Shown here one piece after another: positions 9,880 through 62,923 of a stretch of 64,000 nt of DNA; the first letter of the stretch is position 1; every line of letters begins with the position of its first letter. The stretch is from Octopus vulgaris (Eukaryota). Both the position numbers and the translations under genes were made by a program. The notes under the pieces are model-generated. The model had not been told where the DNA came from. It saw nothing but the letters and a program-made list of their open reading frames with translations, and did not search any database. The stretch spans positions 3,658,001 through 3,722,000 of the forward strand of contig OX597818.1 of the NCBI GenBank assembly GCA_951406725.2. The letters run 5' to 3'.

Positions 9880-12740
9880 AATAATGATTTTATTAACCAC
9901 AAAGGGTTTATATTAAGAAAACATTAAGGACAGCTCAGGACAAAACATTGAATGTATCTGTATGCATGTGCGTGTGTGTCGGTGTGTGGATTTTGCGTGT
10001 AAACGGTTTTAACAATAATAAAAAAGGGAGGTAACAAAAGAATATTAGCAACGAGAATTCTTCAATAGGGAAACGTTCGAAGGCTGCTCGGGAATAAAAT
10101 CTCATAAAATCACGGCTGCCTTGACTTTTGAGGTAAGTGCCAGCTCTCATTTCTTAATATCCGATTTACAGGCGTATACTCAGGACAGGCCTATTCACTC
10201 AGACCATGTCGCCACTTTCAACCAATTTTTAACAAAATGGCGGGAAAACAACTCTCCCCTCTTCATCTTTATTTTCCTCTTCAAGTGCAACTTAAAGAAC
10301 CCGATGAGGGATTAGCCAAAGTGGTAAGTATTTGTTTTCAGCCTCTTCTGGAGTATGGGATTCAAGCCTCTTCTCCTTATCTCCTCAAAGACATACAGCA
10401 TCTCGAAAGAGTCCAGAAGCTGGCTACCCGCATGGTTCATGGTCTCAAAAATTTGTCCTACGAAGAAAGGCTGAGGACGCTCGACCTTTATTCTCTTGAA
10501 AAACGCCGCCGCCGTGGTGATCTCATTCTCGCCCACAACATCATAAGCGGAAAGTGTAACCTCTCGAAAGAGCTGTTCTTCACTCCTGCTCCAGAGCGTC
10601 GGCTGCGGGGTCATTCCGAAAAGCTCTATCTTCGATGATTTCATCTCAATCGAAAGAGAGGAGCTTTCTCCGTCCGGGTTGCGGATCCGTGGAACAAGCT
10701 GCCAGACGAGATGGTGAAGATGCCGACGACCGCTTTGTTCAAAGCCTCCCTTGACCTCAAGTGGCCTGAACTCTTTACATGAACACCACCCTGTACTTAA
10801 TTCCATGTCCCCCTACATGGCCTTGCTATTTGCTTTTGAGCCAAATTAACTAACTAACTAACTAACTAACTAACTTCTTTCGGTGTGGCCATCAGCCTTA
10901 TAAAAATTGGCTGCCCTTCCCAGTAAAAAGCAGACGGCCAGGCGATCTTCATGATAAGCTCAGCTGATAGCCAGGTCCGTCTCACACATAACAGCAAGTA
11001 TTCGACATAAACCCACAGGTCAGCAATACTCGGGTACTGAACGAATGTGTATAGGAAGGTTTCGTCTCCCTGCACGCATCTCGGATATGCTCAGCTGATG
11101 GCACAACCATGTCTGTAGAGTTATTTTGAACCAGCAATGCTCCCCGGTAGCATTGTCAGGCCAGGGATTTCTGGAAGTCACCCATCGATTCAGGGCTGTA
11201 AGTTTTCTGGAAGAGAGTGGCTAGTTGATCAGCTTCGATGTCCAGGATCTCTCCAAGAACGTTGTCGATTTTACTCTTCTCTAATCCTCTATAGGTCGCT
11301 AAGGTGGATTTTTCACCTATCACAGTGCCTGTTTGGCTGGAGGCTGTGAGCGCTTGAAGATATTCCACTTTCCAAATATTCTCTCTAGTTTTTTGCTGAA
11401 TCCAGGGTTGCAACTCCGTCAAGAAGACGAGTTGGGGAAACGCGTGTTCGACGAAAGGCGATCACACCTGTTCACAGTCAAGGAAGCGCTGGAGAGGTCT
11501 TAGCCTTAGCACATGTTTGCGTTTCATCATCATACCCAGTCCACTACGCAGTGGACGTTGACAGCAGATGGCTCACTTGACTATCAGAATGCGTCCTTTC
11601 CACAACACAAAAGAGTAAACGCTCCAGTGCAGTCAGACGGAGACCGGGACAAAGCACGACGGTCAGGTGGCAGTAGAGGACGTGTTGTACGCGTGTTCCA
11701 CCACCTGACCCTTCAAAGATAACTTTCTCTCGTCCCAGTTTGAGTGAGCGTAGCAACGCTACTCGTTACTTCGTCGCAGTTTTTGTTCATGCGGAGGTCC
11801 GGACCGAACAAGAACTCGAACTATTTAATCGGTCCGACTGCCCATTGATACTGTTGGTCAGCGTGAACTTGCTTCTCCAGGTGCCGAACCGCAAACCCAC
11901 TGACTTTTCCTGGTTAATTTTCGCTCCTGTTTCTGCTTCGTATTCTCTGAGAGCAGTACCGATTATCTTAATGTGTTCGATATAACTACGGTGACGTCGT
12001 CGGCATATGCCGACATGCATCTTCCACGTTGCCCCTAAATGTCTCTGCTTTGTGTAGTAGTGGATCGCGGGTCAGTACGTACAACAGGGATGAGAGGAGA
12101 CAACCTTGACGGACGAGCGTATGATGTTAAACGGCTCCGAAAAGTGACCGTTCACTCTGACCACTGAACAGATGTCGTTGTGCATTGTAATGCTCCATCT
12201 CCTGAATACGAGCAGAAAACTGACTGCTAAGATAGATGATTGATTCTATCAAAAGCTTTCGAGTGATCTAAGTTGATCAGGGCCTCACCCACGCCAGGTT
12301 CTTTAGTCACCTTCTCTATGGTGCATTGCAGAAGGTCGTAGATGGATCTTTTTTTAGATGTCGCATGCTAGCGTTTCCCCTACCTGACTACTGATGACAA
12401 GCGCCAACTTCGTCGCTAACACCTTGGACAAAATTTTGAACTCTCCAGAGTTATGGACCTAAAATTATGAATATAGTCCCCTTTGTTCGGGTCCTTTCTC
12501 AGCAGCACCACCGTTCCTCGGCTCACAGAACTGGTAATTATCCCGTTCTGTTGCAACAAGTTCGACTTATGACTGTAAAGCACGCAGAGCAGACCATCTA
12601 AAGTAGGCGATTTATCCCCCCTACAGCTTTTCATTACACCCCTGATTTCAGCGGCTTTTCACAATACTCTGTCTGTTGAGGTAGGCACTGACGTCCACCA
12701 CTGCTTCTGAACAGCTGAACGATATGTTGATGAAAAGCCG
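9880..12740 (-). mobile_element. Degenerate 5'-truncated Tx1-clade LINE (ORF2 RT and C-terminus), interrupted by a CR1-type fragment
   Basis: Fragments homologous to ORF2 at 35995-39424 (KSPTLDGL, LLRKDPNKGD, GAKINQEKSVGL, DETFLYTFVQYPSIA). The 3' end TTTTATTAACCACAAAGGG resembles the other Tx1 copies. Confidence 0.88.
10335..10875 (+). mobile_element. CR1/L2-group LINE 3' fragment with (TAAC)n tail
   Basis: PLLEYGIQASSPYLLKDIQHLERVQKLATRMVHGLKNLSYEERLRTLDLYSLEKRRRRGDLI...RGHSEKL...FSVRVADPWNKLP, followed by a tandem TAAC tail. Confidence 0.9.
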
Positions 12741-13119
12741 AACATATCTGCTTGGGATCGAGTAGTCTACTAGAGGCACAAGACCTGAAATTTTGTGGGG
12801 AGAGGACAAATCGATTACATCCACCCAGAGCACAATTGGTATATATTTTATCAACCCCGAAAGTCCAAGTCGACCTCACCAGAATTTGAACTCAGAACAT
12901 AGAGACGGACAAAATGCATGCCAGCTCGCAGTCTAATAATAATAAAAATAATAATCTAGACGATGTAATGTAACCAAACACCTGACAGTGAGAAGAAGCA
13001 CAGATTAGGTAATGACAGACTAGGAAGAAGTGGTGTATTTAACTTCCTCTTACAACTGATTAAGGCTGCGCTACTACTGCCACTGTTGCCTAACTCCTAC
13101 TCATGACAACACTATCACT

Positions 13120-19030: not shown

Positions 19031-19328
19031 TCTATCTCTCACAAGATCGTGTACAGTTTTTAATTGATCTTACCATCACGGAACAGTACACAATATATAA
19101 TGGTGTTGATGATGATGATAATAATAGCGGGATGGGCTACTCGACCAGAAGAAAATTCTAACTGGGCCCCACTTGCAAGTTCATGCGCTGTTTATCTTGA
19201 TATGAGATCACCATGTCACGCACATATGGTTGTGATGTATGTGCCTAGTGTACCCTTATCAGACGAGTACTCATGATGGGTACACTGGCCCCAGTGTCAC
19301 TTTGATGGCATGCACTGCTCTCTCACTC

Positions 19329-33955: not shown

Positions 33956-35325
33956 ATACACACACATGCACACACATACTCGCACACGCAAAGAATAAAC
34001 AAAGTTTCCTAATTTGGTATATTATTTTTTTACCAAAGAAAAAGAAATAAATATCCTTAAGAGATAAAATATGAAAAGAGAGAAAAATTAAAGAAAATCA
34101 TTTTGGTTTAATTCTTGTGGAATCGTTTTTAAAGAAGTGGAAGCAAAATCTATTTGAAATATCAAAAAACGGTTATTCATTAGTCATAAGAGCTGAGCTT
34201 TATTTTCTTGAAACGAGAAGTTGTGATGTACATGCCTACATTAAAGACACACGTGGTTATAACAATGAAGTTCCTAAGTAGTCGTTTGGTCCACGGTAAG
34301 AAAAAGCAGCTAAATCTCCCTCAAATTACACGCCATAGCCTTAAACTAGAACATACCGTATAGCGTAGTCCTAGTTGGATCATGTTTAAATAAAAGACAA
34401 GAAGGGCATGACGAGAATTCTGTGGTCACTGGTTTGCTTAATCCGGAATAACACAAGCCTAAACAACAACAACAACGACGACGACAGCATTAGTAGCATT
34501 AGTAGATGCTTACACTTGAGTCACCGACTCAGTTGAGTTTTAGAACCCTGTCTGTAATTATTCACTAAGTTGTTACCCGCGAGCAGACTCGGCTGTTTGA
34601 CTATTTGCCTCTCCACCAAGGTGACGCAAGGTATGAATTTAACAGTTGGTGTTGTTTAGCTCCGAGTCAGACTCGATCCAGCAGACTTGTAACTAAAGAT
34701 GTTCTAGCGGTGATCATTCTGTTATTTGCCGTGACATAGTATATCTTGAAGTACATTATATGTTCTTATTGTTGTTTAGTACCAGGTCAGACTTAAACTA
34801 GGAGAATAATAATAGTTATTATTTCTACTACAGGCACAAGGCCTGAAATGTTGGGAAAGAGGGCTAGTTCATTAAATCGACTCTAGTGCTGAGCTGGCAC
34901 TTATTTCACTGGCCCCGATAGGATGAATGGCAAAGTCGCCTCGCCAAATTTGAACTCAGAACGTAAAATCGAAGAAATGCTGCCAAGTATTTTGTTTGAC
35001 GAGTTAACGATTCTGCTGTCTAAATTATATTATTACTAGCTGACTCCGTACCGTAAAAAATGACGGCTAATTGTAGTATTTAATACATAAATATGGATGG
35101 TAAATAAAATTAATACACTTGTCAATGTTATCTAGCGGTTGTCTTCTGAGATGTGAGGTCGATCATCGTTTGAAAGAACGCTAGTTGACATATACAAACA
35201 TTCACATATTTCCCTTGCACACGCACACACATACACATATATACTCACACAGAGTTGAAACGCTGTTTCATTTTTCTTTTCAGCGTTGACTATTCACCAT
35301 CCTACTTCCATTGCACACACACACA

Positions 35326-35376
<51 letters not shown>

Positions 35377-35994
35377 CACACACACACACACACACACACA
35401 CACATTCACATACCTCCTTTTTATATATACACACATACTCACACAGAGCTGAAACGCTCCCACTGCCAGTTCACCATTACCCCTTCCTTCCTTATTCATC
35501 TATCACCCCTTTCTTTCTCATTCATATGTTGTGACGAAGAAAAGAAAGTTCTACTTCTCCTTGCGTTCCTGCCTGTTTCATCTGAGTGTTATTCTTACGT
35601 CATCGAATGTAGAAATTCGTGGAAAGAGACCCAGTTGGACCTTTGATAACAGAATTAACCGAAGCAAATACGATCGACAGTTCTGTGAAGTAAAATGTAA
35701 TAATAATAATAATAATTAATTCTTTTTTATTGGCCACAAGGGCTGACACGCATGATTTGAAACATGAAGGGACAAGACAGGACGAAAGGTTACAAAGGGT
35801 TTTGTCCGTTTTTGAAAAACATCGAGTAAAAACTTAATAACATTTAAAAACATTTAACAATGAAAAACTCCCAAAAGGGGGAGACGTTTCGAAAGGTTCC
35901 TGGTGGAAAAAACCCTACAAAAGCCAACGGGAGCCTGGTCAAAAAAGGGGTGTAGAGAGTCCCTTTTTTCTCCTTTTGTATTACTTTTTTGAAA

Positions 35995-38900
35995 TCACAG
36001 GCGAAACCTGAGAACTGGTCCATTTATACTGGCCAGTCTCGCACAATTCACCCACCTTTCATAAAACTTGCTATCGGACAGCACTTTCCTCTCTAACCTC
36101 ATCTTCCTTTTCAAGTGAAACTTGAAAAAGTTGATGAGGCCTTGACCAAAGAGGAAAGTGTCTGACTTTAGCCCTTTCAAACGAGTCCACCACACAACTT
36201 CTTTCGCCACAGCAACTAGACACAAGAAAACGGCCTCGCCATCCTTGTTAAAGGAGGTCGGCGGGGCAATCTTCACTATGGATTCGGCCGATAGTCGGAT
36301 CCGTCCTACACGTGACAGTAGCTGTTCGACATAAACCCATATTTCAGCAATACTCGGGCACTGGACGAGTGCGTGCAGAACGGTTTCGTCGTCCTGGCAA
36401 CACCTCGGGCAGGCCCGGCTGACGGCACTTCCGTGCCGGTAGAGTTTATCTCGAACAGGCAGAGCCCCTCGGTAGCACTGCCAGGCGAGCGACCTCTGGA
36501 AATTATCCATCGGCCCTGGCTCGAAAGTCCTTCCGAACAGACTGCTCAGTTCGTCGTCTTCAACGCCTAGAGTTTCCCCGAGAACGTCGTCGCATTTTTC
36601 CTCCACTAACCCTCTATAGAACGCTAGAGTGGAGCTGTAATCGATCGCATTGCCCGCCTGACGGAGGGCGGAGATAGCTTGACGGCACTCGAGGTGCCAA
36701 GTGCCCTTTCTCGGTCTACGTTTGATCCAGGTCTGCAGCTCCGTCAAAGAGACGAGCTGCGGAAAATTGCGTCTGACAAAAGACGACCACACCTGTTCAC
36801 CGTCTAGGAAGCGCTTGAGATGCCGCAGCCTTAGCGCATGTCTGCGCAACAGCAACCACGGCATTCCAAGGCCTCCGTTCAGCGGTCGTTGACAGCAGAT
36901 GGATCGCCTGACCTGTGGCACCTGACCCTTCCACAAAAAGTCGAAGAGCAGGCGTACCAGCTTGGCCAACCAGCGGTCGGGACAAGGGACGAAGGTCAAG
37001 CGGTAATAGATGACGGATGCGATGTACGCATTCGCCACCTCCGCTCGACCTTTCAGGGACAGCTTCCTCTCGGCCCATTTCTGGGTGAGACGTGCCACCC
37101 TGCTCGTCACCTCTTCCCAGTTCTTATCCACCTGGAAGTCCGGACCGAACCAGACCCCGAGCAGTTTAACGGGTCCGTCTGTCCAGCGACCTTCGACGCT
37201 GTTGGACGGCATGGGCTTGCCTTTCCAGGTGCCCAGTTGCAAGCCCACAGACTTTTCCGCGTTAATCTTTGCCCCTGTCACCGCTTCGTACTGGTTTAGT
37301 GTCTCGCCAATCAGGCCAATGTGTCTGTGGCTCGACACCACCACGGTGACGTCGTCGGCATAAGCAGACACGCTGTTTCCGCCTCCTAGATCGCGCGGGA
37401 TACCCCTCAAAGCCTCCAACTTGCGCAGTAATGGCTCGAGAGTCAAAATGTACAAGAGGGAGGAGAGAGGGCATCCTTGGCGGACAGATCGCGAGATGTC
37501 GAATGGTTCCGAAAGGTGACCGTTCACCCGTATCACCGAGCAGATGTTGCTGTATAAAGCAGCGATCCACCCGCGGAAGACTGGACCGAAGCCGGCTGCC
37601 TTGAGGACAGCTGCCAGGTACCGATGGTCGACCCTATCGAAGGCTTTACTCTGATCCAAGTTGATCAAAGCCCCACTCGCACCAGCGTCGTTACCCACCC
37701 TCTCTATGATGTAGCGCATGAGATGGAGGTTGTCGTGTATCGACCTGGTCGGCACGGCGCATGTCTGCGTCTTGCCGACCAGCTTGTCCACGACAAGCGC
37801 CAATCTCTTGGCTAGCACCTTGGCCAAAATCTTCAACTCTGCATTGAGCAGAGTGATGGGCCGGAAATTCCCTATAACGTCCCCCTTGTTTGGGTCCTTC
37901 TTCAGCAAAGCCACCACCCTTCGACAGACAAAAGCAGGAATTCTCCCGTTTTGCTGCCAGTTGCAGTAGACGTTTGCCAACAGGTCCGCAAACAAGTCTG
38001 GCATTGAAAAGTAAAGCTCGTAGGGCAGACCATCCACACCCGGCGAGATACCTCTCGTGCAACTCTTCATCGCTTCCTGTACTTCCCAGGCAGATATCGG
38101 TCCTTCGCAGCACTCTGCCTCGCTGTCCGAGAGTTGCGGCAGTCCGTCCAGGTACACACCGAAGTCTGTACCGTTGGTGTCCGTTCCACCGCTCGTCCCA
38201 AACAGTTGAGCAAAGTGCCGCTGAAGCACCGTACACATCTGCTTCGGTTGGGTAACCTCGCGCCCGTTCTGGTCCACCAAAGACCGAATGGTTGCTCTGT
38301 TGCCTCGCTTCGCCTCCGCCACGCGGGACCATCGAGCGGCTCTAGTCCCCTCCCCGCTTAGCGAACGTGCCTTAGCTCTGACAACGCAGCCTTCGTGTTT
38401 GGCGTCGAAGTGTTGGTCGAGGGCCAACCTTGCCGCCAACACGTCGGTCGCGATGCCAGTGTCAAGAGCCTCGTCTAGTTTCTTAACTAAATCCCGCTCT
38501 CTCTTCCTACGTTCAATAGCTAGAGTCTTACTATACCTAATCGACTCTACTCTAATTGCTCTCTTGAGGGCAAACCACCAGTTGTTGTTGATGATTGCCC
38601 CCGTGAGCGCCCGCTTAACTAGTAAACTAATCCGGTCTCTGTAAGCTTTGCACGCCGTTAACGACGCGTTCAGCTTCCAGTAGCCGGGTCCCTGTCTATG
38701 TAGCCTATCTAAGTCGACCGTACAGATCACTAATTTGTGGTCCGTATATTCGACTAGGTGGAATTGTGGACACCCTACGCTGTCCTTATCCGCTGGCCTA
38801 CAAAACACTCTATCTAAGTACGATCTAGACGACCCGATGCGGTTTGTCCAAGTCCACATTGGCACATTCGGGTTGTCTAGTCGAAACCTGTCGGACAGCT

Positions 38901-39424
38901 GAAAGCGGCCGAGTAGGTTGGCGAGGCTCTTGCACCCTCCCCCTCTCCTATCAGACGCTCCCCTGCCCACCCGATCGAAACGTTCGTCTAAGACAGCGTT
39001 CCAATCCCCAACTAGTACTAGAGTGCGTGACGTTCCCAGGAAAACTTCCAGACGTTTGAAATAATCCGACTGCCCTGCTCCTGTCGGAGCGTAGGCAGCC
39101 AGCAGTCTGAAAGCACCGCCGTCACTACCGTCGACGTCGAGGACCACCAACTTACCTTCCGGATCCAAGAAGACTGTCCTTATTTTCAGGTCCAGGCCCT
39201 TCCGAAACAACACCGCAGTACCACCACCGACACGGCCGACACGGAGATAGAAATATCTCGTATCCGCCGAAAAGGGCTGCGAGTTCCTGCGGGTCGGAGA
39301 GCCTGGTTTCACTGATGGCTGCTACATCCACATCATGAAACCTCAGGTCGTTTAACAGGTGACCCTGTTTCCAAGGTGACCCGAGGCCTCTCACATTCAA
39401 GCAACCGATTCTAAGATTTGCCAT
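35995..39424 (-). CDS. Tx1 ORF2 (APE endonuclease, reverse transcriptase, C-terminal zinc finger), one frameshift near 39235
   Basis: CLNVRG, SET, YAP, GDWN, SYLD, TDH (APE); GPGYWKLN; PGVDG, FRPITLLN, DQSKAFDRV, VRQGCPLS, YADD (RT); CPRC..HALVQC. Confidence 0.95.
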
Positions 39425-39463
39425 GTTTCAAAAGTTAGGGGGAAAAAAAGGAGAAAAAAGGCT

Positions 39464-40286
39464 CTACTTACTGTTGTTGGTGGTGGGGGTGGCTCCCTTG
39501 TGCTTTTGCACGGGTGCTTCAATAATATTTTTGTAAAGTTTCTGAGAGAAACTTTTCCCTAACGATCCCACATCGTTAGGGAATATTTGTTTTATTTCGT
39601 TGTAAACTGTTTTGTTTATTTTTATTGTGAGAATGTGTGCTGGTGGTGTGTTGTGTGTAGGTATTATGAAATCTGTAATGTTTGTGCTTGTTTTGTTTTT
39701 CAAATACTCAACCAGTTCCTGGTTTCTTGTATTCACTGCTGTAATCGTGTCTGTAATTGTGTCTGTGTTTGTTTGTGTCTGTGGTAGTGGCAGTAGTGGT
39801 GTCGAAAGTGTTGTTGTTGTTGTTTGTTGTCGTGAGTGTGTGTTGTTGTTGATGTTGTTGTTGATGTTGGGAAGTACTATTTGTTCGTGTTTCCCCTGTA
39901 AATCTTTTTGTTTTTTCCTCCTTTTCTTTTTTGGAGGCACTATGTTCCATTCTCCTTTGTTGGAATCAGAGCTCGCACAATCCGAGATCTCTTCATCCGG
40001 CAAAGGAATGGTTGAGGGGTCTGCTTCAGTAGCAGGACGAAAAGTTTTTGGTTCCGCCGGTATCGGTGGTGCCGCTGCTCCTGTTACTGTTGATGTCGCT
40101 GCTGTCGACCTTCGAGGTACTGGTGTCGGTGTTGGTTTGGTGGTGGTTGTCGGTGTTGGTTTGGTGGTGGTTGTTGTTGTTGGAGGTGGTGTTGTTCGTC
40201 TTGGTGCTGGTGTTGGTGATGGTGTTGGTGGTGTGGCAGCCTTTGGTGTTTCTTGCTGTTTTTGTTGTTTCTGTTGTTGTTGCTTG

Positions 40287-40317
<31 letters not shown>

Positions 40318-41352
40318 GCTGCTGCCTCTTGCTGAAAGCCTCCATCCTCTTTTTGTGAATGGGACAGTCCCTCTTTAAGTGGCTTTCGCTGCTGCAGAGA
40401 AAACATTTTGGCTTTCGCCCCTCCACAGCAACGTTTAGCCTGGTGCCGTCCGGCAAACTTACGAAATCAGGGACTTTACTTATATTCTCTTGCTGAATTT
40501 GCGCAAGAAGCAGCACTCCCATCCCCAACCAGTTTTTCGCCCTCACTCTCCTGACATCTAGAATGGTGGTAGTGTCCTCTATATCATAGAGGACAGCTGC
40601 CACCAGCCATGACATATCTAGCTCAGGGGGTGCGAGGTCGATTTTTATTTTTGTTACTCTTCGCCCGAGGTGGGTCGGAACTAGTAACAAATTCTCAGTT
40701 TGCAAGGGCGAAATGGCGTTCGCCCTTGCAAGCTCCTCTGTTGGGAAGCGAACCTCCACGGTTCCAAAACGCTTCCCCTTGGTTACGTAGCTCTTTTGGG
40801 CCCAAATGGGCTTTAGAGCTATCTCCAACTGTTGGGGTGTGGCATTTGTTATTCTTTTTAGTTTTCTGTCGAAAACTTTGTAAATTATTGTTTTCTTGTT
40901 GGTGCTTTCAATCACCTCTTGTGGAGTATTGAGGAAGATGCCATTGCCATCCTTCCTCAACAACTCCTTCGCTCTTTTCACATCTTCTAGAGTTATCTTA
41001 ACTTCCTCCGAAATTTGCTTCGCAGCAGAAGCAAAATTGTTGGAAGTTTTTTCTTTTTCTCCGTGTCAATGTTTGTGATGATTTTTGTAATTGTTTTTTC
41101 TTCCTCCTCCTTCCGTACCAAAGCATTGGGTGAAGGCAGAGGGGGAAAATCGAGAATTACGTCGAACGCGACGTCCTGGCTTGCATTCTCCTTTTGAACC
41201 GAGCGCGTGCTCTCCGGTTCGGAAGGAGGAGCTCTGTTGCCTTTTACGGCCTGAAATGGGTTGTTCGCAACCCGTGACGTTATTTTTTTTTGTTCTTGTG
41301 GGGGGGGTGTTGCAAGAAGGAGGGAAGAGCCAGCAGCTCGTTTCAATGCCAT
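39464..41352 (-). CDS. Tx1 ORF1 (RRM-like region, CCHC knuckle, poly-Q/PT-rich tail), one frameshift near 41050
   Basis: ATG at 41352 (MALKRAAG...); knuckle CFLCSSESHLKRDC; lies directly upstream of ORF2. Confidence 0.88.
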
Positions 41353-41589
41353 TTTGTAATGTGTGTGTGCAAAAAATGTCAATTTCAAAAGGATAAACAG
41401 TAATTTCACCCCGAATGGGGCAAAATTTCGCCCAACCGACGAGCTCCGCAAGAAGCCGGTCGGTTTGGCTACAAAAATATTAAAAAATATTCAAACCTAT
41501 CAAATGATTTCCAATGAAATTGGTGTCAAATTCACGGAGCTGATTCACGTACGTCCATCGGCGTCGGAAGGAATAATAATAATAATAAT

Positions 41590-49879
<8,290 letters not shown>

Positions 49880-49889
49880 GAAAGAAATA

Positions 49890-50432
49890 AAGAAATTATT
49901 CTTCTATTAGCCACAAGGGTTCACATGCAAAAACATTAAATGACAATCAACACCATAAAAGACAAAAACAGGACGATACAATGGGTTTTGCAGCATGTAA
50001 ACACTATAAATATCAATTAAAACAAATTAAAATTCCCAGATGGGGTGACGCTTTAAGGTCCTCGTGGAAAAATCCACAAAATTCACGGGAGCCTGGTCAA
50101 CAGAGCAAGAGCCTTTCTCCTTTAATTCCTTTTTCATAGGTGCACGCTCAGAACTGGTCCTTTCACACTGGCAATTCTTCCAGAATTCACCCACCTTTCA
50201 ACAAACTTGCTAGAAGACAACACTTCCCTCTCCACCCTCAATTTCCTTTACAAGTGAAACTTGAAAAAGTTGATGTGGGCTTGGCCAAAGAGGAAAGTGT
50301 CTGTCTTTAGCCCTTTCAAACGGGTCCACCATACTACTTCTTTCGCTACGGCCACTAGACAAGTAACAATTGCTTGTCCCTCCCTGACGAAAGAAGTCGG
50401 CGGGGAAATCTTCACAAATGATTCAGCTGATA
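49890..50432 (-). mobile_element. 3' fragment of a related Tx1 subfamily
   Basis: Homologous to 35717-36290 (KEVVWWTRLKGLKTDTFLFGQ region and 3' UTR). Confidence 0.88.
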
Positions 50433-50530
50433 TTAATTAGGTATGTAACAATTACTAAAAATACTAAAAGAAACCAATTATTAAATGGTTGACCTCTGAA
50501 AATATTTTTATAAATTCATGTTCTAAGAAA

Positions 50531-53500
50531 TTTGTTTCTTTATTGCCCACAAGGGGCCAACATAGTGAGGACAACACAGCCTGATCGGGGTCAGACACAT
50601 AGATGAGTATATAAAAGTTTACAATGAAATTGGATGTGAAACGAATGAAATACTACTACCGGCACCTTTCATTAAAACTTATGGTATGCTCATGAAGAGT
50701 ATTTCACACACAACATCCGTGCTACACGCATCCATCTTTGAACATAGTCTCCGATAGGAATCTTCTCTCTAGCCCCACTTTCCTTTTCAGGTGGAAGGTG
50801 AAGAACCTCTTCAACCCAAGACCAGAGATGAAGTTGCCTGTCGCTAATCCTTTCATTCTTGACTTCCATATCAGCTCTTTTGCAATTGCTACATCTACGA
50901 GAAAACAATTCTTACCTTCTTTCGTGAAGAAATTCGGTGGGTCTATTTTTAGAATTGACTCAGACGACAGCTCTACTCTTCTCGAATCCAACAACAGGTG
51001 TTCCGCATAAGTTCACACTTCTGACACATCCGGACACTGAACAATAGCGTGCAGGACGGTTTCCCTATCCGGCTCACATCTTGGACAGGCCAATGGATCG
51101 GGCTGGCCGTGTCTGGTGAGCTTATCCCGAACGGGTAAGGCTCCTCGCTAACATTGCCAGGTCAGAGATTTTTAGAAGTTATCTAGTGTCCTCGGCCCGA
51201 ATGTCCTTTGGAACAGACTGTCTAGCTGGTTATCATCGAGATCCAGGGTCGCCCCCAGAGCATCATCACATCTAGCCTCTACCAACCTGCTATAGAAAGA
51301 TACGGTGGTACCAAAACTACTGGCACTACTCGAGTGACGGAACAGCGGGAGGGTCTTACGGCACTCCGTAAACCATGTACCCAACCTCGATCTTCGACGA
51401 AACCAGCTTTCTCGCCCACCGAAACTAGTGAACCTAGGAGACATCCGTTTCGCAAGCGGAGACCACACTCGTTCACCATCCAGGAGAAGCCGGATGTGTC
51501 TTAACCTCAGCGCGTGCTTGCGCATCAACAGCCAAGGCATTCCTAGTCCTCCCTTCAACGGCTTCGGATAGCAGAAAGCCTCACAAGTGGAGTCGAGCCC
51601 TTCCACAAAAAGCGGAAGATTTGTCTCTCCAGCTTGCTCAACCACGAATCAAGACAGGGAACGACGGTTAGGCGATAAAAGATGACCGATGCGATAAACA
51701 CATTGGCCATCTCCGCCCTCCCTTTCAAGGATAGCCACCGCCAAGACTAGGTCTTGACTATGAGGGTGACCTTGCTCGATACCTCTGCTCAGTTCTTTTC
51801 TACCTGGAGGTCTGGGCCAAACCAGAATCCTAGCAACTTAACCGGACCCATCGTCCAACATCCCACGACGCTATTCGAAGGCATCGACCTGCCCCTCCAC
51901 GTGCCGAGTTGCAAGCCGACTAATTTTTTCCGGTTAATCTTTGCTCCTGCCACCGTCTCGTAAACCTTAATGGCTTCGCCTACCCCCTGTAGATGTTCCA
52001 TCTTGGTCACGATGATGGTGATGTCGTCCGTGTATGCTGAAACCGATCCTCCATCAACTGGTTCCTTCGGGATACCACTCAACTTTCGCAGTAACGGCTC
52101 CAGAGCCATCACATACAAAAGCGACGAGAGTGGACGTCTTTGGCAAACCGAGCGCTTGATACAGAACGGCTTTGAAAGAAAGCCGTTCACCCGAACGATC
52201 GAGACGATGTTGTCATATAACTGTATGATCCACCAGAGGAAGCCAAGACCCAGCCCGAACTGCACTAGAACGGACACCAGGTAGCGATAGTTAACCCTAT
52301 CGAATGCTTTAGATTGGTCTAAACAGATCAGAGCCCCGCCCTTGCCAGAATCGTTACCAAACCCTTCTAAGTCGTAACGTATAAGATTGAGATTATCCTA
52401 GATGCTTCTTTCGGGGACAGCACAAGTCTGTGCCTTGACGATCAGACCATACATGGTACGTGCCAATCTTTTTGCTAACACCTTGGCCAAAATCTTTAAT
52501 TCTGTATTATCTATTCTATCCCCCTTGTCCGGGTCCTTTCTGACCAGAATTACCACTCCCCGGCGCACAGTTCTGGGAATCATCCCGTTCTACTGCCAGT
52601 TCGCGTAAATCCAGGCCAGTAGGTGCCCGAGCAAGTCTGGCATACTTTTATACCATTCGTAAGGTAGACCATCAAGACCCGGCATCTTACCAACGCCGCA
52701 GTCTACTTTAGCCTCAATCAGCTCCTCAGGTGTGATCGACCCTTCACAGCACTCCGCATCCCGCGCCAATAGACGCGGCAGTCTGGCCATGAAAAGCTGG
52801 GCGAAGTGCTCTTGAAAAGTCTTACACTACTCCTTGAGTTCGCTTACCAACTCACCTTATAGGTTCTCCAAAGATCGAACTGTAGAATTATTTCCACGTT
52901 GGGCTTCCACCACTCGAGCCCACCCAGCGGTTCTGATCCCCTCCTCGCAACCCATTGCACGAAGTCTAGCTCTGACAATACACTCCATGTGCTTGGCTTG
53001 GAGATGCTGGTTTAGTTCCAGTCTCTTCGCCATCACCTGAGCTGTACTGCCAGTCACCATGGCTTCCTCTAGGGTCTTAACTAGCTCTTTCCTCCTACGT
53101 TCTCTAGCCACTAAACCTTTGCTATATCTAATAGACTCAAATTTAATGACTCTTTTGAGGGCGTACCACCATCTGTTGTTAATAATGGTACCTGTCAATG
53201 CCCTCTGTATCCCCTCCTCGCAACCCATTGCACGAAGTCTAGCTCTGACAATACACTCCATGTGCTTGGCTTGGAGATGCTGGTTTAGTTCCAGTCTCTT
53301 CGCCATCACCTGAGCTGTACTGCCAGTCACCATGGCTTCCTCTAGGGTCTTAACTAGCTCTTTCCTCCTACGTTCTCTAGCCACTAAACCTTTGCTATAT
53401 CTAATAGACTCAAATTTAATGGCTCTTTTGAGGGCGTACCACCATCTGTTGTTAATAATGGTACCTGTCAATGCCCTCTGTATCAACAATTTAATCCGGT

Positions 53501-54840
53501 TCCTATACTCTTCAATCGTCAAACGGGACTTATTGAGTTTCCAGTAGCCGGAGCCTTTACTATATAGCTTATTTAGGTTCAGCTTACAAGTGAAACACTT
53601 GTGATCACTTTAGTTGACCGGGTGAAACTTTGGACACTTAGCTATATCTTAGTCTATTTTTCTAATTAGGATCCTATCTATATAAGACCTTGAAGACCCG
53701 TCGCCTCTTAACCACGTCCACAATAGTCGGGAATTCTAGTCTGTATGGATCTACTAGCTGAAAGCCGGAAGCCAGGATTCGATCTCCTATTCGTACTCGG
53801 GCCAACACTATCCACGCGTGCATCGTGAATAGTGATAAAGTCTCCTAACAAAACTAACGGATGCGATGTATCAAGAAACTTCTCTAGGTCTCGAAAATAT
53901 TCAGTCTGACCAGAATTGTGGGCGTAAATTGCCATCAGTCAACGTCTTCACCGTTTGACCCGTCCAGTTCCTATCTTCTATAACTTCTGCTGATAACAGC
54001 GTTATTTTATCTTCTAACTCCAACATTACTGCTGCCACCAGCCATTCAGCATTGATCTCCGGCGAAATATTGCTAATTTTAACTCAAGAGGTATATGGGC
54101 AGGAGCACCACCTCGTCCGTTCTCAATGGTTTGACCGAGTGAAGTTTTGCTTTTTCGGCCGACTCCATCCTCACTTCTATGGTTGCATATTTTTTCTCCT
54201 CGTTAAGTATTGGATCTCGCCCCATATGGGCTTCAGGCATTTTTCAATATATTTTTCTTGAACATATTCTATTCTGTTTTTTCTCCACATTATATATTTT
54301 GTAAATAATCGTCCTTTGTAACACGTCTGTTGCAATATTTTGTGGAGAGGCCACATTAATTTTGGTCCCCTCCCTTGACAATAACTCACTGTTTTCTCAA
54401 ATTTTCAGTATTAATTTATTTGCTCTTACTCCCGGCAGCTGCCACGAAGTTAATCTCCATTGCGTTACTTTGAGCTTCACCAGTTGTAAGACTGGGTACT
54501 GCTATGTTTTTCTTTACATTTATCTTCGTTTTTTCTTCCTTTTTAGGGGATGTTTTAGGTGAGTTTTCACTTTGGCATTTCTTTGGAGAGTCACTCTCCG
54601 AAAACAATCGTTCTGGTGTATTGCTCCATTTCAAAATGGCAACACACCAAAGTTCGCGCAGAAAAATATTTTGAACAACAACAATTCCCCCTCGCACGGG
54701 GGAATTGACAACAATTTGCTTTACAAAAAAGCAACAAACAGTTCTTTTTTTAAAAAACCAACTATCAACAAGTTTAACAACAACAACAACAATTTTCTTA
54801 CCTTCAGCAAAACACAACCAAACAGTACAAATCCAAACGA
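50531..54840 (-). mobile_element. Degenerate Tx1-clade element (distinct family) with an internal deletion near 54000 and a 273-bp tandem duplication
   Basis: ORF2 fragments (YAHNSGQ, GDF, PGLDG, AYTDD, GGLGMPWLL) and ORF1 fragments (EKCLKPIWGEIQYLTR); flanked by ATGTTCTAAGAAA on both sides. Confidence 0.9.
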
Positions 54841-54853
54841 ATGTTCTAAGAAA

Positions 54854-55650
54854 CTCCTTTCTTCAACATACATGTGGGGACACATAACACGAAAAATAAA
54901 TAAAATGAAAAATAAAATTAAACGTATGATAACATGAATGACACAATGATAATGAAAATGTGCTACTTGCTCCACTTCAAACAGCATCACTTCCTTTTAT
55001 CTTTTGAACCACATCTATTTCCGGTGGAATTCCTTCCACCCTAATCCTGGAAGTCCTTCTTCCCAAATAAGTGGGTAGAAGGACCACTTTGTCTGATTTT
55101 ACTGTGTTTATCGCGTGTTCCTTTGCTTTGTCTTCCGTCTTTCAAGACGGAAAATAGTTCCGAATTTATTTCCTTTGGCCAGATACGTTATGTCTTGCCA
55201 GACTGAGTACAATGCCTTTTCTATGATTCCAGCTTCTACATGTTCTATTTTCTTTTCCTCCACTGAATACATCTTGTATACTACAGTCTTTTTGTCTATT
55301 TCTTCTGGAATGGTGACAGCTTAACGTCCCCACCTACTCTATATGCCATTTTTTTCATATTTTTTCAATATTTGAAAGGTCTATCTCCTTTTTTTAACTT
55401 CTGTTACTTCTGCAAAGCTTTTCTTCCTCAGACATTTATCTATCCTGTCGACTGCAAGAATTAGTTCCTCCTCCGAAGAGGACAATTCGGAATCACAAAG
55501 GTCCGAATAGAACATCCTTTTTGCCATGGCTTCTCTCGATAAAATCCAGAAAAAGCACAACTAGAAAACCGCTGTAAAGCAGCACAAAGCCAACAATTCA
55601 AACAACAGTAACTTCAAACAATAATCAAACTTCAGCTCACTAGAATGTTC
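54854..55650 (-). mobile_element. Short ORF1-only Tx1-related element (HAL1-like)
   Basis: MAKRMFYSDLCDSELSSSEEE...KKTVVYKMYS...KGNKFGTI...VLLPTYLGRRTSRIRVEGIPPEID; no ORF2 sequence. Confidence 0.7.
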
Positions 55651-55656
55651 GACGAA

Positions 55657-57126
55657 ATTTGTTTCTTTATTGCCCACAAGGGGTTAACGGAAAGGGGACA
55701 TTACAAGGACATGTGGGGACATAGGAAAAAAAAACAAGAAAAGAAACAAAATTTCAAAAACGTATGTTATAATGGATGAAAATTAAAAGTGAGAAATGGA
55801 ATGAAGCCCCAACTCTGAGTCACTTCTCTTATACCATTTTCACTTTTTATATTTGGTTCCTGCCAAGACATCAAACTTGTACTCCTTCAATAGATGTACG
55901 TAATCCAAATGCTATGGCAATTTTTCGATATCCAGATCAATTTGCCACATTTCAAGTCCACTTTTAAACTTTTTGATTTTTTCTTTTTGCTTCCCATTTA
56001 ATAACAGGCTTCAATGAAACCCTTGTACATTATCAAATTTATTCGTGTCCACTGATCTTATGTCTTTCCACTTCCTGATCTCCTCGCACAGTTTCTTGTT
56101 TGTATTATCATTTAGCATAGTTTTTCTTTCTTTTCTTCGGGAGGTAGGGAAGTTGAAAGGCTTGTGTCCGTATGTATTTGTTTGTGTGCCAGAGGGGGGG
56201 TAGGTTCAACGTCTGTAGGCGGTGGGTGGGAGGAAGAGAGATTGGGTGGGGTTCTGTGTTTGTTTTACCAGATTTCTTCCTTTTCCTTTTTCTTTTACCG
56301 ACTGCTTCCCATTCTCCTGATTCACCTTTTTCTTCTGATTCTACTGGTAGTGGTGGTGTTACTTCTGTTTTTCTTGCTTATTCTTCCTTCATTTTGTCTC
56401 TAAATGTGGCCGCACTTGTAGCATCGAGGGATCCTGCCCTCTACTCTGACCACCATTATTATGTCTTCAATTGCTATGATCTCCGGTATTTCCTCAATAA
56501 TCTCTTTCGGTCCTTACCTACTTTCTGTCCAAGTTGCCTGGAGAACCGATATCTCTTCTTTATTATCGAGTAAGACAGCAGCTGCTATCCAGGTTGCGTC
56601 AACCTCTGGTGGGATTCCTTCTACACTGACCTTTACCGAGTGTCTTCCATGGTACGTAGGCAATAGCACCACTTCGTCGCTCTTTAAAATAATTGCCGCA
56701 TTCATCCTTGCCAAGTCTGCATCTTTAAATCTTACTTCCATTGTTCCGTACTTGACCCTCATCATTTTTGTATCATCACGCCTCATAATTTTTGTATAAC
56801 TTTTTCATTCATCCCATTCTATTCGGTGCTCTTTAATCTTTGCAATCTCCGCAAAGCTTCTATCTTCTCTCGCCTGTTTTTCTCTTATTCAACGAAATAT
56901 CTGACTGTTCTGAAGAGGACAGTTCTGAGCAGCTGATATCTGAGTCGCTGATATCTTCTAACATTTTCACTTGGCTTACCGTCCTCTATGAGGAGGGAAA
57001 GTACAAACAAACTACCACAAGGCAACACAAACAATAGTGTTCAAAGAATACTACAACAATTAAACAACGGTAATTTTAACCCATAAAACACCAAATAATA
57101 TAACTTCAGCTCACCAGAATGTTCGA
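55657..57126 (-). mobile_element. ORF1-only Tx1-related element (HAL1-like)
   Basis: KYGTMEVRF...LLPTYHGRHSVKVSVEGIPPEVD...VEGRIPRCYKCGH, then a 3' end CCCCTTGTGGGCAATAAAGAAA with no ORF2. Confidence 0.75.
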
Positions 57127-57129
57127 CGA

Positions 57130-57725
57130 AGTTAATTTCTTTATTGCCCACAAGGGGCCAACAGAGAGGGGACAATACAACTACATGTGGGGACATATAA
57201 CACAAAACAACATGCATATATTCCACCCTATTTTGTCCTGATAATCATCTGCACTCACAAACTTTGCTGTTTTCCAACTCGTTACCATCCGGATTAGCTC
57301 TGTATTGTCCTCGTCCGTTATTATGCACGCGTAAGGGGAGGGGAATTTTTTGTGCTTTGTTATGTCTGCGATTCTTTTTTTCTTTTTAGCTTGTCTAGGA
57401 GGGAAATGGGTGGGTTCGATGTCTGTAGGGAGAGGGTCTCAGAGGGTATGGGTGGGGTGGGCAAGGTTTGAGGGTTCCACATTACACTTTTTCTCTTCTT
57501 CCCTTTTCCATCTGCTACTCTCCATTCTTCCTCTCTTTTCTCCTCTTTTCCTTTTTCCTCCTCTTCCTTCTTTTCCGGCGTTTCTACTGTTGTTCGTTTT
57601 TGTAGAGGGCAGTGTGTTTTAAAACAGCGAGGAGTCTTGCCCTCCACCCACACTTTCAATACTAGTTCACCAATTGACACTGTTTTCGCCAGATTTTCCA
57701 GTATCTCCACCGCAGCTTGTATGAT
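57130..57725 (-). mobile_element. 5'-truncated ORF1-only Tx1-related element
   Basis: VWVEGKTPRCFKTHCP...EEWRVADGKGKKRK followed by the same 3' end as the 55657 element. Confidence 0.7.
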
Positions 57726-57729
57726 CATT

Positions 57730-60700
57730 CCATTCACACAGGCCACTCTTCCTACATACACCCACCCTTCGACAAACTTATTGGAGGACAGCACTCCCTC
57801 TCCAGACTCACCTTCCTTTTCAGGTGGAACCTGAAAAAGTTAATGAGGCCTTGGCCAAAGAGGAAGGCACCAGTCTTCAACTCTTTCAATCGCGAACACC
57901 ACACAACCTCTTTCGTCATAACCACCAGAAAAATATTCCTTTCCTTCTCGGCCAAAGGAAGGAGGTGGGGCAATCTTCACGATAGACTCGGACGATAGCC
58001 GGATTCGTCCTTCACGTGACAATAACTGTTCGAATAAGCTCCATAAGTCAGCAATGAGCGGACACTGTAAAAGTGCATGCAAAACGGTTTCTTAGCTCAG
58101 CATTCACCTCAGAGAAGACCGTCTTATAGCACATCCGTGCATATAGAGCTTATCACGAACCGACAGCGCTCCCCCCGCCCCGATAGTGCTGCTAGGCCAG
58201 AGATTTCTGAAAATTACACAGTGGCCCCGACCCGAGAGTCCTCCGGAAGAGACCAGTCAGGTGATCCCTCTCGTCGCTCTTGCCCTCCACTAATCCCCTA
58301 TAGAACTCCAAGGTGGAACTTTCACTGACCGCATTGCTCGAATGGCCAAGGGCTGTGAGCGCTTGGAGACACTCTAGGTGCCAAGCGCCCTGTCTCGGTC
58401 TACGCCTGATCCAGGACTTTAGTTCCGTCAAGGGGACAAGCTGCGGAAAAACTTGCTCAGGTATCGCTGGAGATATCACAACCTCAGCGCATGTCTGTGC
58501 ATCATCAGTCACGGCATCCTCCACGCAACGGGTGCTGACAGCAAATGGACCGTCTGACAAGCGGTACCCTTCTCCTCCACAAGAAGCAGAAGAACAAGCG
58601 CACCAGGCTGTTTAGCCACGAAGTCAGGCAAGGGGCGACAGTCAAATGGTACTATATAACGGATGCGATGTACGCATTCCCCACCTCCACCTAACCTTTC
58701 GAGAACGGCTTTCTTTCGACCCATTCTTGGGTAAGACTGGCCACCCTGTCTGTCACTTCTCCCCAGTTCTTGTCCACTTGGTGGTCCAGACCAAACCAGA
58801 CCCCGAGCAATTTAACCAGTCCTTCCGCCCAGCGCCCCACAACGCAGTCTGCCGGCATGGACCTACCTCTCCAGGTGCCGAGCTACAGGCCCACAGATTT
58901 CTCCTGGTTGATCATTGCTCCTGTCACCGCTTTGTATTCCCTTAGGGTAGTGCCGACCATCTCTATTTTAACGATATCCGACACTATCACGGTGACATCG
59001 TCCGCATACGCTGACACACCTCTTCTGCATCCTAGCTCAGGTGGAATGCCCCTCGAAACATTCAGCTTCCGCAATCATGACTCGAATGCCAGTACGTAGA
59101 GAGGGGGTGAGAGTGGGCATCCTTGACGGACCGAACGGGCGATGCTAAACGATTCCGACAGGTGGCCATTTACTTTGACCACCGAACATATGTTGCTGTA
59201 CATTGCGCCTCGGCTATCCAGGCCCATCGAACGGCTTAGAGCATGTGCCCTAGCTCTGTCAATGCAACCATCATCTTAGTGTTGAAGAATTGGTTCAGAA
59301 CCAATCTCGCTGCCAGCACGCCGGTCGTTATGCCTCTTCTAATTTCCTAACTAGTTCTCCCTCTTCTAATTTCCTAACTAGTTCTCCCTCTACTCTAGTA
59401 TTTTCTATCGCTGATTCCTTGCTAAATCCTACCGCTTCTACTTAATTGTCCATTTTAGGGCTGCCCACATTCGGTTGTTGACGTCTCCGCCTGTCAATTT
59501 TCGATAGACTAACTTAATAATCCGGTCTCTGAAAGCTTGGCGCACCAGGAAAGATGTGTTTAACTTCCAGTATCCGGGGCCCTGTCTATGGAGCCCACTT
59601 TGGTCGACCATACAGATCACAAACTTGTGGTCCGTATAGCTGACAACTTCAAATTGTAGACAACCTATGCTATACTTATCTGTTGATCTACAAAATACCC
59701 TATCTAGATAAGATCTGGATGACCCAACGCTATTTGCCCATGTCCACATTGGAGCATTTGGGAAATCCAGTCTGAGCCTGTCAGCCAATTGGAAACGACT
59801 AAGCAGATTTGCGAGGTTTGCGCACCCCACTTTCCTGTTAGCTAACCCCACCCAATCCACACGTGCATCTTAAGACAGCGTTTCAGCCACCAACTAACAC
59901 TAAATAGCGAGATATCCCAAGAAAGACCCCCAAACTTCTAAAGAAATTCGGCTGTCCCGCTCCAGACGGTGCGTACATAGCGACCAGTCTAAAGGCACTG
60001 CCTTCGCTATCATTAACGCCCAAGACCACCATCCTATATTCCGGGTTCAGGAAGACCGACCGTATCTCGAGATCCAGGCCTTTTCTGAACAACACCGTCC
60101 TCCCCATTCCCGGTCGACTAAGAGATGCAAAGATTTCATGATCATCGAAAATGGGTGCTTAGGCGCGCGTGTCCGAGATCCTAGTTTCATTGGCAGTTAT
60201 TACGTCTAATTTTCGCAACTTGAGGTCATTGAACAAGCATCCTTACTTCCAGACGACCCCAGACCGTGTACATTTATACTGCCCATTCTAAGCAATACGA
60301 TGTTAAGCGATGGGAATGTGTGATAGTAGGAGAGAGCTACTTACCAAAGCTTTGTAGGGGAGTGGGAGTGTCTACACCGTCCCTCTCGTTGCATGTGGGT
60401 TTTTCCCCAGCAGTTCCTTGTAAAGTCTGATGTTGAGGTCATTTTGAAAGGACTCTCTTAGGAGATATCTAGATTTCAAAATTTTGTAGTCGCTTTGGGT
60501 AGCTTTGAATATATTTATGTGTGCCGATATATTTGTGGTTGGTGTGACATAATTGGATTCGTTAATATCCATGTGTTTGTGGATGTGTTCTATTCGTTTT
60601 TTTTTTGCGTATAGCCGTGAGATTTATAATGTCTGGCTTATGATCATTTGATGGAATGCAGTCCATTTATTGTGTATGTAGGCTATGTTATGTTTGTGAT

Positions 60701-62286
60701 GGTTGTGGAGGTTATGGTGGTAGTGGCGGGGATGATGTTATTACTGCCTGTATGTGTGTAGGTGAGTTTATGTATGGTGTGTTGTTCTTACTGTTCGTTT
60801 CCTCCTCAATTTTCTTTTTTTTTTTTGGTTATTGTTTGTGCTTTTCCGTCTTTTCCTTCTTTTCGTATGACTGTTTGCCATGCCTGTCCCTCCTTATTTT
60901 CGTCGTTTTCGTTATCCGAATAGGGGAGGGGTATTTCTTCCGCAGGTATTTGTTTTACTGTTGACGTTGTTAATGGTGTTGTTGCTGTTTCTGCTGCTGC
61001 TGCTGCTGCTGCTGCTGTCCTTGTTGTGGTGTCTGTTGTGGTTGTGGTGGTGTTAATGGTTGATGTGGCTCATTTCCCCCCTTTCCTTCTTTCCTTCGGG
61101 CAATAGATCCTGATGTGACCTGAATCGCCACAGAGGTACTATCGCGGCCTTCCTTCCACGATCACCTGCAGATGCTGTCCTCCAGGGATTTCTATTATGT
61201 CGGGGGATTTTCTCTACAGCTTCTGGTTTTACTTGCAGTAGAATTTCCAACCCTATCCCAACCTAGTTCTCCTGTTCGGATTTTTGGATTTCTTGGAGGA
61301 TCTTCCTGCACCACGACTTTCACTACCCGCTAGAAATTGATTTCTGGTGGTATGTTACTTATTTTTATTCGGATCACTCTCTGTCCCAGATAGATGGGAA
61401 TTTAAGTGAACGCCTCCGTTTTTAATGGGACAGTTGAATATTTTTGTGCTAGTGATTCCGATTGGAATATGACCTTGTAGCCGAACTTTGAGACGTAGCA
61501 GACAAAGCTGACATGCCTCCATATATTTTTCAGGCAGAGCTCGGCTTGGTCTGATGGTATTTTTTCCAGTCTTCTTCTTTTCATGGACAGACATCTGTAC
61601 ATGATTGCTTTTTTTTCGGGCACATTTAATGTGGCCTTCCTTTCTTCACGTCTTATAACCCTCTTAGCTTCCTTTAAATGTTCTCCCTTATCCTTTAACG
61701 ACATAATTTCAAACTTATTTGTAACTTTTGCGAAGGAAACGTTATTTCTATTTGAACCTCTCTTTGTTCGAAATGTTACTGATTTGTGTGATGTCGTAGT
61801 GGTTGTGGTGGTGGTGATATGTTCCTTGCACAATTGCCTGCTGCTAGTTATATTTCGTGCTTCCTTGATAGAATTCTCATCACTCCTGACATTTCCACTG
61901 TGGTTGTTGTTTTTTTTTTGTTGTCATTGCTGTTGCTACTCCTCCTGCAACTACCACTATCATTTACATCTAGAGCGGGTGAGGCAAGTGACAGCGGAAG
62001 ACAATTTCGCGTTCTACATCTCCTACCACTTCCCTCTCTTGTTGACTCGTTGACAAAAACGACGACACAATATTAAATTTTGCAAATTTTGAAAGGAAGA
62101 TTAATTTTCTTTTCGAGTGATTTTTGCCCCGCAAGTAAAAAAAATAACACTGTTAATCAGACTAATATGGTCTAGATTAACTTAGTCTCAAGTTATAACA
62201 ATAAAATGTAACAATAACAATCTTTCTTAGAGGTAAACAAGGCACACACTTACGGAGCTCCGAAATACACGTCCAGCTCTGGCGAC
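57730..62286 (-). mobile_element. Degenerate Tx1-clade element (ORF1 + ORF2 remnants, RT core deleted near 59205) with its 5' end abutting (AAT)n
   Basis: SAYADD, GPGYWKLN, SRSYLDRVF, YAPSGAGQ; ORF1 remnants at 60370-61900; plus-strand end CTCTGGCGAC|AATAAT. Confidence 0.9.
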
Positions 62287-62337
<51 letters not shown>

Positions 62338-62923
62338 TATAATAAATGCCCTGATGCAGTACCAGGCAGTGGCTCTCATGGCTTCTGATCTTAACTGATT
62401 GGAAGTGTTATCATGTACATTGTTTTGTCTTGGTATAAAAGATGGGCTACAGCAAATATTCTGCTCAATACCACAGATTTGCTTGTCAGTTGTTTGACCT
62501 TAACCAGTTGAGCATGTCCCTTAGTGGCTGACGATATGTGCATCTCTGATCACGAGCAGAAGTAGTGGGGGAGCATCATAGCCATGTGTTGAGAGGGATT
62601 CTTTGGGGTTTGAATAATTCACCTCTGGAAACACGGGTGGTTCTTTCAACATCCTTAAACAACCCTTATTCAGGGACCTTTTGAGCGGGATGGGCTACTC
62701 AACCTGAAGAAAATTCTAACTGGACCCCACCTGCAAGGTCATGTGCTGTTTATCTTGATATGAGATCACCATGTCGCGCACATATGGTTGTGATGCATGT
62801 GCCTGGTGTACCTTTATCAGACAGGTAGTCATGATGGGTATATTGGGCTTCGTATATTTTACCCCAGTGTCACTTTGATGGCATGCACTGCTCTCTCACT
62901 CAATAATAATAATAATAATAATG

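Follow-up and report, generated by a model that had tools for sequence, protein, structure and literature searches.

How does a short sequence that is not a microsatellite come to stand at one joint after another in a chain of retrotransposons? The question arises in a 64-kb window of Octopus vulgaris DNA (the window being the whole stretch analyzed). It is microsatellite-rich animal DNA, and from 35.7 to 62.3 kb it holds a stack of related long interspersed nuclear elements (LINEs), every one on the minus strand. An earlier note had described a recurrent motif chaining four elements of a Tx1 lineage head-to-tail, apart from a sister lineage flanked by (AAT)n (here the AAT lineage). The head-to-tail joints were found, but the count was short: four joints (J1–J4) link five minus-strand Tx1-like LINEs (E1–E5), the last of them fused to a further element, EA. 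In order along the window, the features are these.

E1, 49880 to 50517, minus strand: short element of the AAT lineage; C-terminal piece of open reading frame (ORF) 2 at 50137-50433 (73% identical to an AAT copy); 3' untranslated region (UTR) ending in (TTA)n.
J1, 50518 to 50530, minus strand: motif TTTCTTAGAACAT, downstream copy of a 13-bp repeat around E2.
E2, 50531 to 54840, minus strand: broken, once-autonomous element; T-rich 5' UTR; ORF2 pieces at 50740-53938; 3' end CCCCTTGTGGGCAATAAAGAAACAAA.
J2, 54841 to 54853, minus strand: motif TTTCTTAGAACAT, upstream copy around E2, identical to J1 at 13/13 positions; bridged by contigs of public runs (X3 record 1 and X8 record 26).
E3, 54854 to 55644, minus strand: 0.8 kb; ORF1 remnants at 55010-55305; no ORF2; terminal block deleted.
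J3, 55645 to 55657, minus strand: motif TTTCGTCGAACAT; opens a block of 29 nt (55628-55656) that matches 57102-57130 at 28/29 positions; spanned by X5 record 19.
E4, 55658 to 57118, minus strand: 1.46 kb; broken ORF1 (match at 56412-56753); no ORF2; full 3' end.
J4, 57119 to 57131, minus strand: motif CTTCGTCGAACAT; bridged by X5 record 22.
E5, 57132 to 57720, minus strand: 0.6 kb; 3' half of an ORF1-type frame, 3' UTR and full 3' end; 5' half missing; fused to the end of EA ORF2.
EA, 57721 to 62287, minus strand: broken ORF1 and ORF2; 5' end adjoining (TTA)n; own 3' UTR missing.

All of the motifs reported earlier are present, ATGTTCTAAGAAA at 50518 and 54841, AATGTTCGACGAAA at 55644 and AATGTTCGACGAAG at 57118, and they stand in the same register. 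Read in element sense, as the letters before the motif, the motif and the letters after it, the joints run ..GCAATAAAGAAACAAA, TTTCTTAGAACAT, GAATTT at J1; ..GAAGAAAGGAG, TTTCTTAGAACAT, TCGTTT at J2; ..GCAATAAAGAAACAAA, TTTCGTCGAACAT, TCTAGTGAGCTGAAGTT at J3; and ..GCAATAAAGAAATTAA, CTTCGTCGAACAT, TCTGGTGAGCTGAAGTT at J4. Compared in this fixed register with the 13-mer of J1, J2 matched at 13/13 positions, J3 at 11/13 and J4 at 10/13 (P of 2e-8, 1.5e-5 and 1.7e-4, respectively, given local base composition). The pattern ATGTTCNNNGAA occurs four times in 64 kb, each time at a chain joint; shuffled sequences held a mean of 0.69 copies and 1 of 100 reached four, for a pattern set after the sites had been seen. 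The motif's TTC follows GGGCAATAAAG at a spacing of exactly 8 nt at J1, J3 and J4, and AACTTCAGCTCAC precedes J3 and J4 only, as previously noted. The motif had also been said to be followed directly by the 3' end of the next element at three joints. The 3' ends are there, but four tail bases (TTTG or TTAA) separate the motif from TTTCTTTATTGCC; moreover, the remaining joint, J2, is also a 3' end, at which E3 retains the upstream CATGTGGGGACA block and has lost ∼35 nt including the terminal CCCCTTGTGGGCAATAAAG. With four of four joints in register, a 13/13 repeat around E2 and a 28/29 repeat around E4 (one locus), the joints look like insertions at the same base with target-site duplication (TSD), and the proposal that a fixed non-microsatellite site was reused holds up.

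In both of its versions, TTCT-A-AGAA and TTCG-A-CGAA, the core of the motif (50521-50529, 54844-54852, 55648-55656 and 57122-57130) reads as a perfect odd palindrome of 9 bp; the two differ by one symmetric double change. As a heat-shock element it fails on spacing (TTC-N3-GAA, not the N2 of the consensus); it may also resemble a STAT site. Rfam, searched over the whole window at the gathering threshold, gave 0 matches, so the motif shows no sign of belonging to a multicopy RNA gene. Nor is it part of every element's 3' end, as many contigs diverge directly past the tail.

The elements between the joints are far from alike. The bodies of E2–E5 do not align as DNA, and the ORF1 pieces of E2, E3 and E4 are 38–56% identical. 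Their 3' UTR is common to all (local alignment P ≤ 0.025 in 6/6 pairs), and RNA folds of five 3' ends revealed no shared structure. E2 (4.3 kb) carries an ORF1 remnant at 53940-54387, fused by deletion to mid-endonuclease, and a broken reverse transcriptase (RT); it aligns in broken pieces to amino acids 73–1086 of an intact sister ORF2. Inside its dead ORF2 lies a 273-bp tandem duplication, 99% identical (52932-53484). E3 and E4 match ORF1 and not ORF2, and E5, with no direct match to the AAT ORFs, resembles the end of E4 ORF1; all keep a LINE 3' end. This is the structure of HAL1 (half-L1), an ORF1-only L1 derivative described in passages of PMC5753468: a 5' UTR, ORF1 and a 3' end with no ORF2. 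HAL1, however, derives from mammalian L1, whereas the octopus E3–E5 are Tx1-like, low in copy number and decayed, and would have transposed independently.

What process could have joined such unlike elements at one base? On balance, we think that one lineage, E2-like elements plus their ORF1-only derivatives, inserted repeatedly at TTC-N3-GAACAT and duplicated the site each time. By analogy with established target-primed reverse transcription, the endonuclease would nick just before TTTC and reverse transcription would begin at the common 3' end. With second-strand cleavage 13–29 nt away, the newcomer would end up with the site rebuilt at its 5' edge, and the next insertion there would land head-to-tail. 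The ORF1-only elements would presumably have been moved in trans by E2-like ones. E3 may have come first, into the 5' UTR of E1, after which the two copies of the site around it would have diverged (GTC versus TTA); E2 would have taken the lower copy, and E4 and E5 the upper. Serial duplication with E3 first predicts the pairing seen, J1 identical to J2 and J3 close to J4. A later deletion that fused E5 to EA would have taken away the outer flank, against which the outermost duplication would be read. Related copies in public sequencing runs differ from E2–E5 by ∼11–22%. At 8–16% divergence, a 13-bp duplication would carry at least two mismatches with a probability of 0.28–0.64, so that ordinary decay is enough to account for the mismatch around E3.

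The host of the first insertion was likely E1, a 0.64-kb piece, with the original site in its 5' UTR, as a weak alignment suggests. From the motif edge, the 5' 68 nt of E1 align weakly to the AAT-lineage 5' UTR (shuffle P ∼0.01, one of 15 comparisons), and AAT 5' UTRs ranked 2 and 3 of 2542 tiles compared with this side of E1. Unlike the three longer AAT-lineage 5' ends (41571, 47445 and 62287), all of which abut (TTA)n, the 5' side of E1 is not (TTA)n. Those 5' ends have GGACGT..GCTCCGT in common. In the 5' UTR of EA, a 10-bp palindrome, CGGAGCTCCG, follows TTT at 62250-62262 (minus strand), approximately where the chain motif sits in E1. A coherent picture of the stack would be four AAT-lineage elements in one microsatellite, with the E2–E5 chain inside the 5' UTR of E1.

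Contigs from public sequencing runs bear on both the chain and the proposed process. Four of 24 runs (X3, X4, X5 and X8, with four organism labels) were compared over 53500-58300; J1 lies outside that stretch. Joints J2, J3 and J4 are each bridged by single contigs, as is the EA/E5 fusion (X3 record 7). Contigs related to E2–E5 differ from them by ∼11–22% (roughly 78–89% identity), and similar head-to-tail joints recur among them. In all four runs, at single-locus depth, an E4-like 5' UTR is joined to a chain 3' end (joints 57038>57145 and 57078>57135); these are likely other loci. In X3, an E4-like 3' UTR runs to the start of another E4-like ORF1 (56881>55726), and an E2-like ORF1 is linked to an E3-like 3' UTR (54922>54240). 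E3-like contigs with the terminal block intact were also found (57174>54868 and 57205>54892). Finally, joint 55611>57102, in all four runs, carries an E3-like 5' UTR and at least 22 nt of the shared 29-nt block, reaching AACATT. We considered but rejected a reading of this joint as the empty allele of E4: other letters lie between its sides, and it occurs at single-locus depth in 4/4 runs beside the filled form.

Several observations weigh against repeated insertion at one site. Carrying the 3' end into unrelated flanks are 23 + 37 X3 contigs and 37 X5 contigs (agreement 0.42–0.43, with no consensus motif) in a sample of loose ends (24 of ∼2670 listed) that is skewed, as a contig with the motif would not end up among them. 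Depth over the 3' core reaches 226,178 at 57158 in X3, versus ∼60 for single-locus contigs, 179 for the E3 5' UTR and 737 for the E4 5' UTR. Read depth on contigs gives no copy number, yet a core thousands of times deeper than single-locus contigs means that most carriers of the tail lie outside such chains. The two other E4-like joints are unaligned over the 29-nt block, and no empty site appeared among the 15 of 151 joints listed. Closer to the presumed host, an AT-rich low-complexity tile outscored the AAT 5' UTRs in the comparison with E1, and the motif is absent from all three longer AAT-lineage 5' UTRs in the window. The self-nesting chains proposed earlier therefore stand as a geometry seen also in other contigs, but not as strict targeting, with so many tail copies in unrelated flanks; random downstream flanks, which the earlier note had named as counting against it, were found in part. 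A preference for the site probably exists, without holding strictly for every carrier of the 3' tail.

The tail itself has a wider distribution. At 57136-57180, in runs X3, X4, X5 and X8, a 3' core of 40 nt exceeds the element bodies in depth by a factor of thousands, and one-base insertion variants at 57158-57160 occur at high depth. A very abundant repeat likely shares the 3' tail of the chain elements. It may be an abundant octopus tRNA-SINE (short interspersed nuclear element), although a motif search of the window found no close copy.

Could the motif instead have traveled with the elements? It might be carried at the 5' end of each element's RNA, as its own promoter block or by host read-through, so that every full-length insertion brings a new target. 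E3 is flanked by different versions of the motif on its two sides, and the two changes mirror each other and leave the palindrome whole (TTCG-A-CGAA versus TTCT-A-AGAA), which by a post hoc estimate would happen in ∼2% of cases by chance. E3 and E4 have 29 nt in common despite divergent bodies, their 5' UTRs are weakly related past that block (P 0.006), and the other E3-like contig extends at least to AACATT. There is also precedent, in passages of PMC4494074, in the foreign 5' extensions of Tx1-Mar and SINEU-2B. Yet ordinary decay accounts for the mismatch, the block is not seen at two other E4-like joints, and the 13/13 match between E2 and E1 would have to be coincidence. We regard a carried motif as unlikely.

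A somewhat less likely possibility is that the endonuclease prefers this short sequence anywhere, that a Tx1 element serves as host at J1 only by chance, and that stacks arise as duplication rebuilds the site. The weak identity of the E1 5' UTR, the lack of the motif in the three other AAT-lineage 5' UTRs and the unrelated flanks at many 3' ends all fit this. But all four motif matches in the 64 kb fall within the Tx1 cluster, and a 5' side of E1 that is not (TTA)n fits the loss of internal sequence from an element that kept its own 5' UTR.

Template jumping fares worse. If end-to-end jumping had strung the elements together in a single round of reverse transcription, the chain would be a concatemer, with the motif as a conserved 5' terminus and no target duplications. 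A 3' end does abut an apparent 5' end at every joint, and end-to-end jumping by the R2 RT is cited in the reference listing of PMC4494074. However, E1 and E2 have only the 13-mer in common, with 5' UTRs that do not align (P 0.35); AAT-lineage copies begin with a different 5' end; and each repeat pair encloses one element, the arrangement expected of duplications. We consider such an origin improbable. Local tandem duplication or an assembly artefact is less credible by far: the region has true duplications (the 273-bp repeat in E2 and a 98.5% identical pair at 35.7–47.4 kb), but unalignable bodies and divergent ORF1 pieces refute the former, an alternative that the earlier note had named, for E2–E5, and the contigs bridging J2–J4 speak against the latter. 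The chain of Tx1 joints is a real, biologically made structure.

Assignment of these elements to Tx1 draws mainly on the sister lineage, which occupies the window below E1.

35710 to 47445, minus strand: two full-length (AAT)n-flanked copies, 98.5% identical, lying head-to-tail and separated by a short run of (TTA)n; in the copy at 35.7-41.6 kb, the ORF2 frame is open over 1108 amino acids.
47446 to 49877, no strand assigned: AAT-derived array of a 15-bp unit, AATAATAATATTAAT, 2.4 kb long; E1 ends into it.

That array, a satellite between two AAT-lineage elements, grades into GAT, TAT and CAA variants. Copies 98.5% identical, one with an open 1108-amino-acid ORF2 frame, mark the AAT lineage as young. 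The intact frame (35998-39321) matched the Pfam families Exo_endo_phos, RVT_1 and zf-RVT, and E2 matched RVT_1. The intact sister copy thus has the apurinic/apyrimidinic endonuclease (APE), RT and C-terminal zinc-binding domain of a Tx1 ORF2, and the CX2CX4HX4C motif of a Tx1 ORF1 is visible in the sister ORF1. Pfam gave no family for ORF1; its Atlas neighbors are zf-CCHC and ZCCHC3 RNA-binding clusters (0.91–0.93), a lead only. The best named match of the intact frame was a coral 'Transposon TX1 149 kDa protein' (311 bits); human L1 ORF2p scored well below it, at 157 bits. A tree of 23 proteins, built without curated Tx1 or L1 references, joined the four window elements and P0001 in a clade with 100/100 support, within which E2 was basal among the window elements with weaker support (88/73). 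E2–E5 and the AAT lineage likely belong to the Tx1 clade, judging from these domains and matches. The separation of two lineages drawn by the earlier note is borne out: the E2 RT is 62–64% identical to the AAT copies (98% among themselves) and 54% to EA, and the 3' tail of E2 differs from that of the AAT lineage.

ORF1 of one window element matched a predicted protein of O. vulgaris (100% identity over 19% of the query) and a protein of O. bimaculoides. Pattern scans for the 3' end hit 11 loci in viral and 4 in metagenome sequence, and neither blastn nor tblastx found any of these similar to the window; alignment of ORF2 to viral contigs gave 4 loci at 25–33% identity. Elsewhere in the window, an older, heavily broken Tx1-like copy (9889-12655, minus strand) has a related 3' end that runs into short ATT repeats, and another insertion interrupts it near 10350-10870. 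Three related SINE-like repeats of ∼170 bp (6800-6980, 12760-12930 and 34820-35020) are 70–74% alike and have tails unlike the Tx1 3' end. Several copies of a ∼500-bp repeat ending in (AAT)n lie at 8357-9358, 19126-19328 and 62414-62922, one pair being 98.8% identical over 488 bp.

Is such behavior known? Tx1 targets listed in passages of Kojima 2015 (PMC4494074) include Tx1D, U2, microsatellites, and Mariner, long terminal repeat (LTR) and Harbinger elements; the same source calls a Tx1 family target-specific when one target type makes up >20% of its flanks. The comparison with Tx1L of Xenopus laevis, which the earlier note rightly said targets another transposon (Tx1D), shows insertion behavior of a known kind: a Tx1-type element at a fixed site within another mobile element (passages of PMC4494074 and PMC1950540). 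In Tx1L, strict specificity was demonstrated biochemically, whereas the octopus site is known from sequence alone and many 3' ends have other flanks. Another parallel is Tx1-Mar/SINEU-3 of crocodilians, with Tx1 machinery, preferred sites in another transposon and tandem insertions around one TSD. As excerpts of PMC4494074 describe, tandem SINEU-3 insertions sandwich the TSD, and target preference ranges from 13% to 90% among passengers. Their target, however, is a Mariner DNA transposon or LTR elements, whereas the octopus target is likely a sister LINE 5' UTR and the octopus passengers are ORF1-only elements. For the (AAT)n-flanked sister lineage, the microsatellite-specific Tx1 elements Kibi and Koshi offer a model, although they target (TC)n and (TTC)n in teleost fishes (same passages).

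Outside Tx1, the L1-type clusters of Zepp (Coccomyxa/Chlorella) and ZeppL (Chlamydomonas) likewise form tandem arrays by nested insertion into existing copies, according to passages of PMC8226300 and PMC3446292. Those arrays are mostly 3' ends, found once per chromosome and probably centromeric, whereas in octopus the 5' ends of E2–E4 are retained and each insertion falls at the 5' edge. The geometry of Zepp-like insertion into an element's own family is true of J2–J4, but it would look no different had an external site been duplicated, and E1 is of the sister lineage. In cephalopods, we found no description of Tx1 targets in a search that left subscription journals, Repbase and supplements aside, where the family may be listed. 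L1-Tx1 is named once, in a table (PMC13282606), and the passages searched of PMC5786205 and PMC4758252 hold nothing on octopus Tx1. The stacking habit is already known for the Tx1 group; the TTC-N3-GAACAT target may be new.

If repeated insertion at this site is correct, the catalogue of site-preferring Tx1 elements would gain both a host group and a target that are new to it, the target being 13 bp long and likely part of a sister LINE 5' UTR. Serial duplication of the site would account for the growth of dense LINE stacks on one strand in octopus. Two close endonuclease lineages, one targeting (AAT)n and the other TTC-N3-GAACAT, would be a natural pair in which to study changes in APE specificity. 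More speculatively, and we think this rather unlikely, a Tx1 lineage and its ORF1-only satellites may have specialized on the promoter region of a sister LINE that targets microsatellites, while carrying the palindromic TTC-N3-GAA in their own 5' ends. Each insertion would then make the next target, and these elements would be LINE-on-LINE parasites with a self-propagating landing site.

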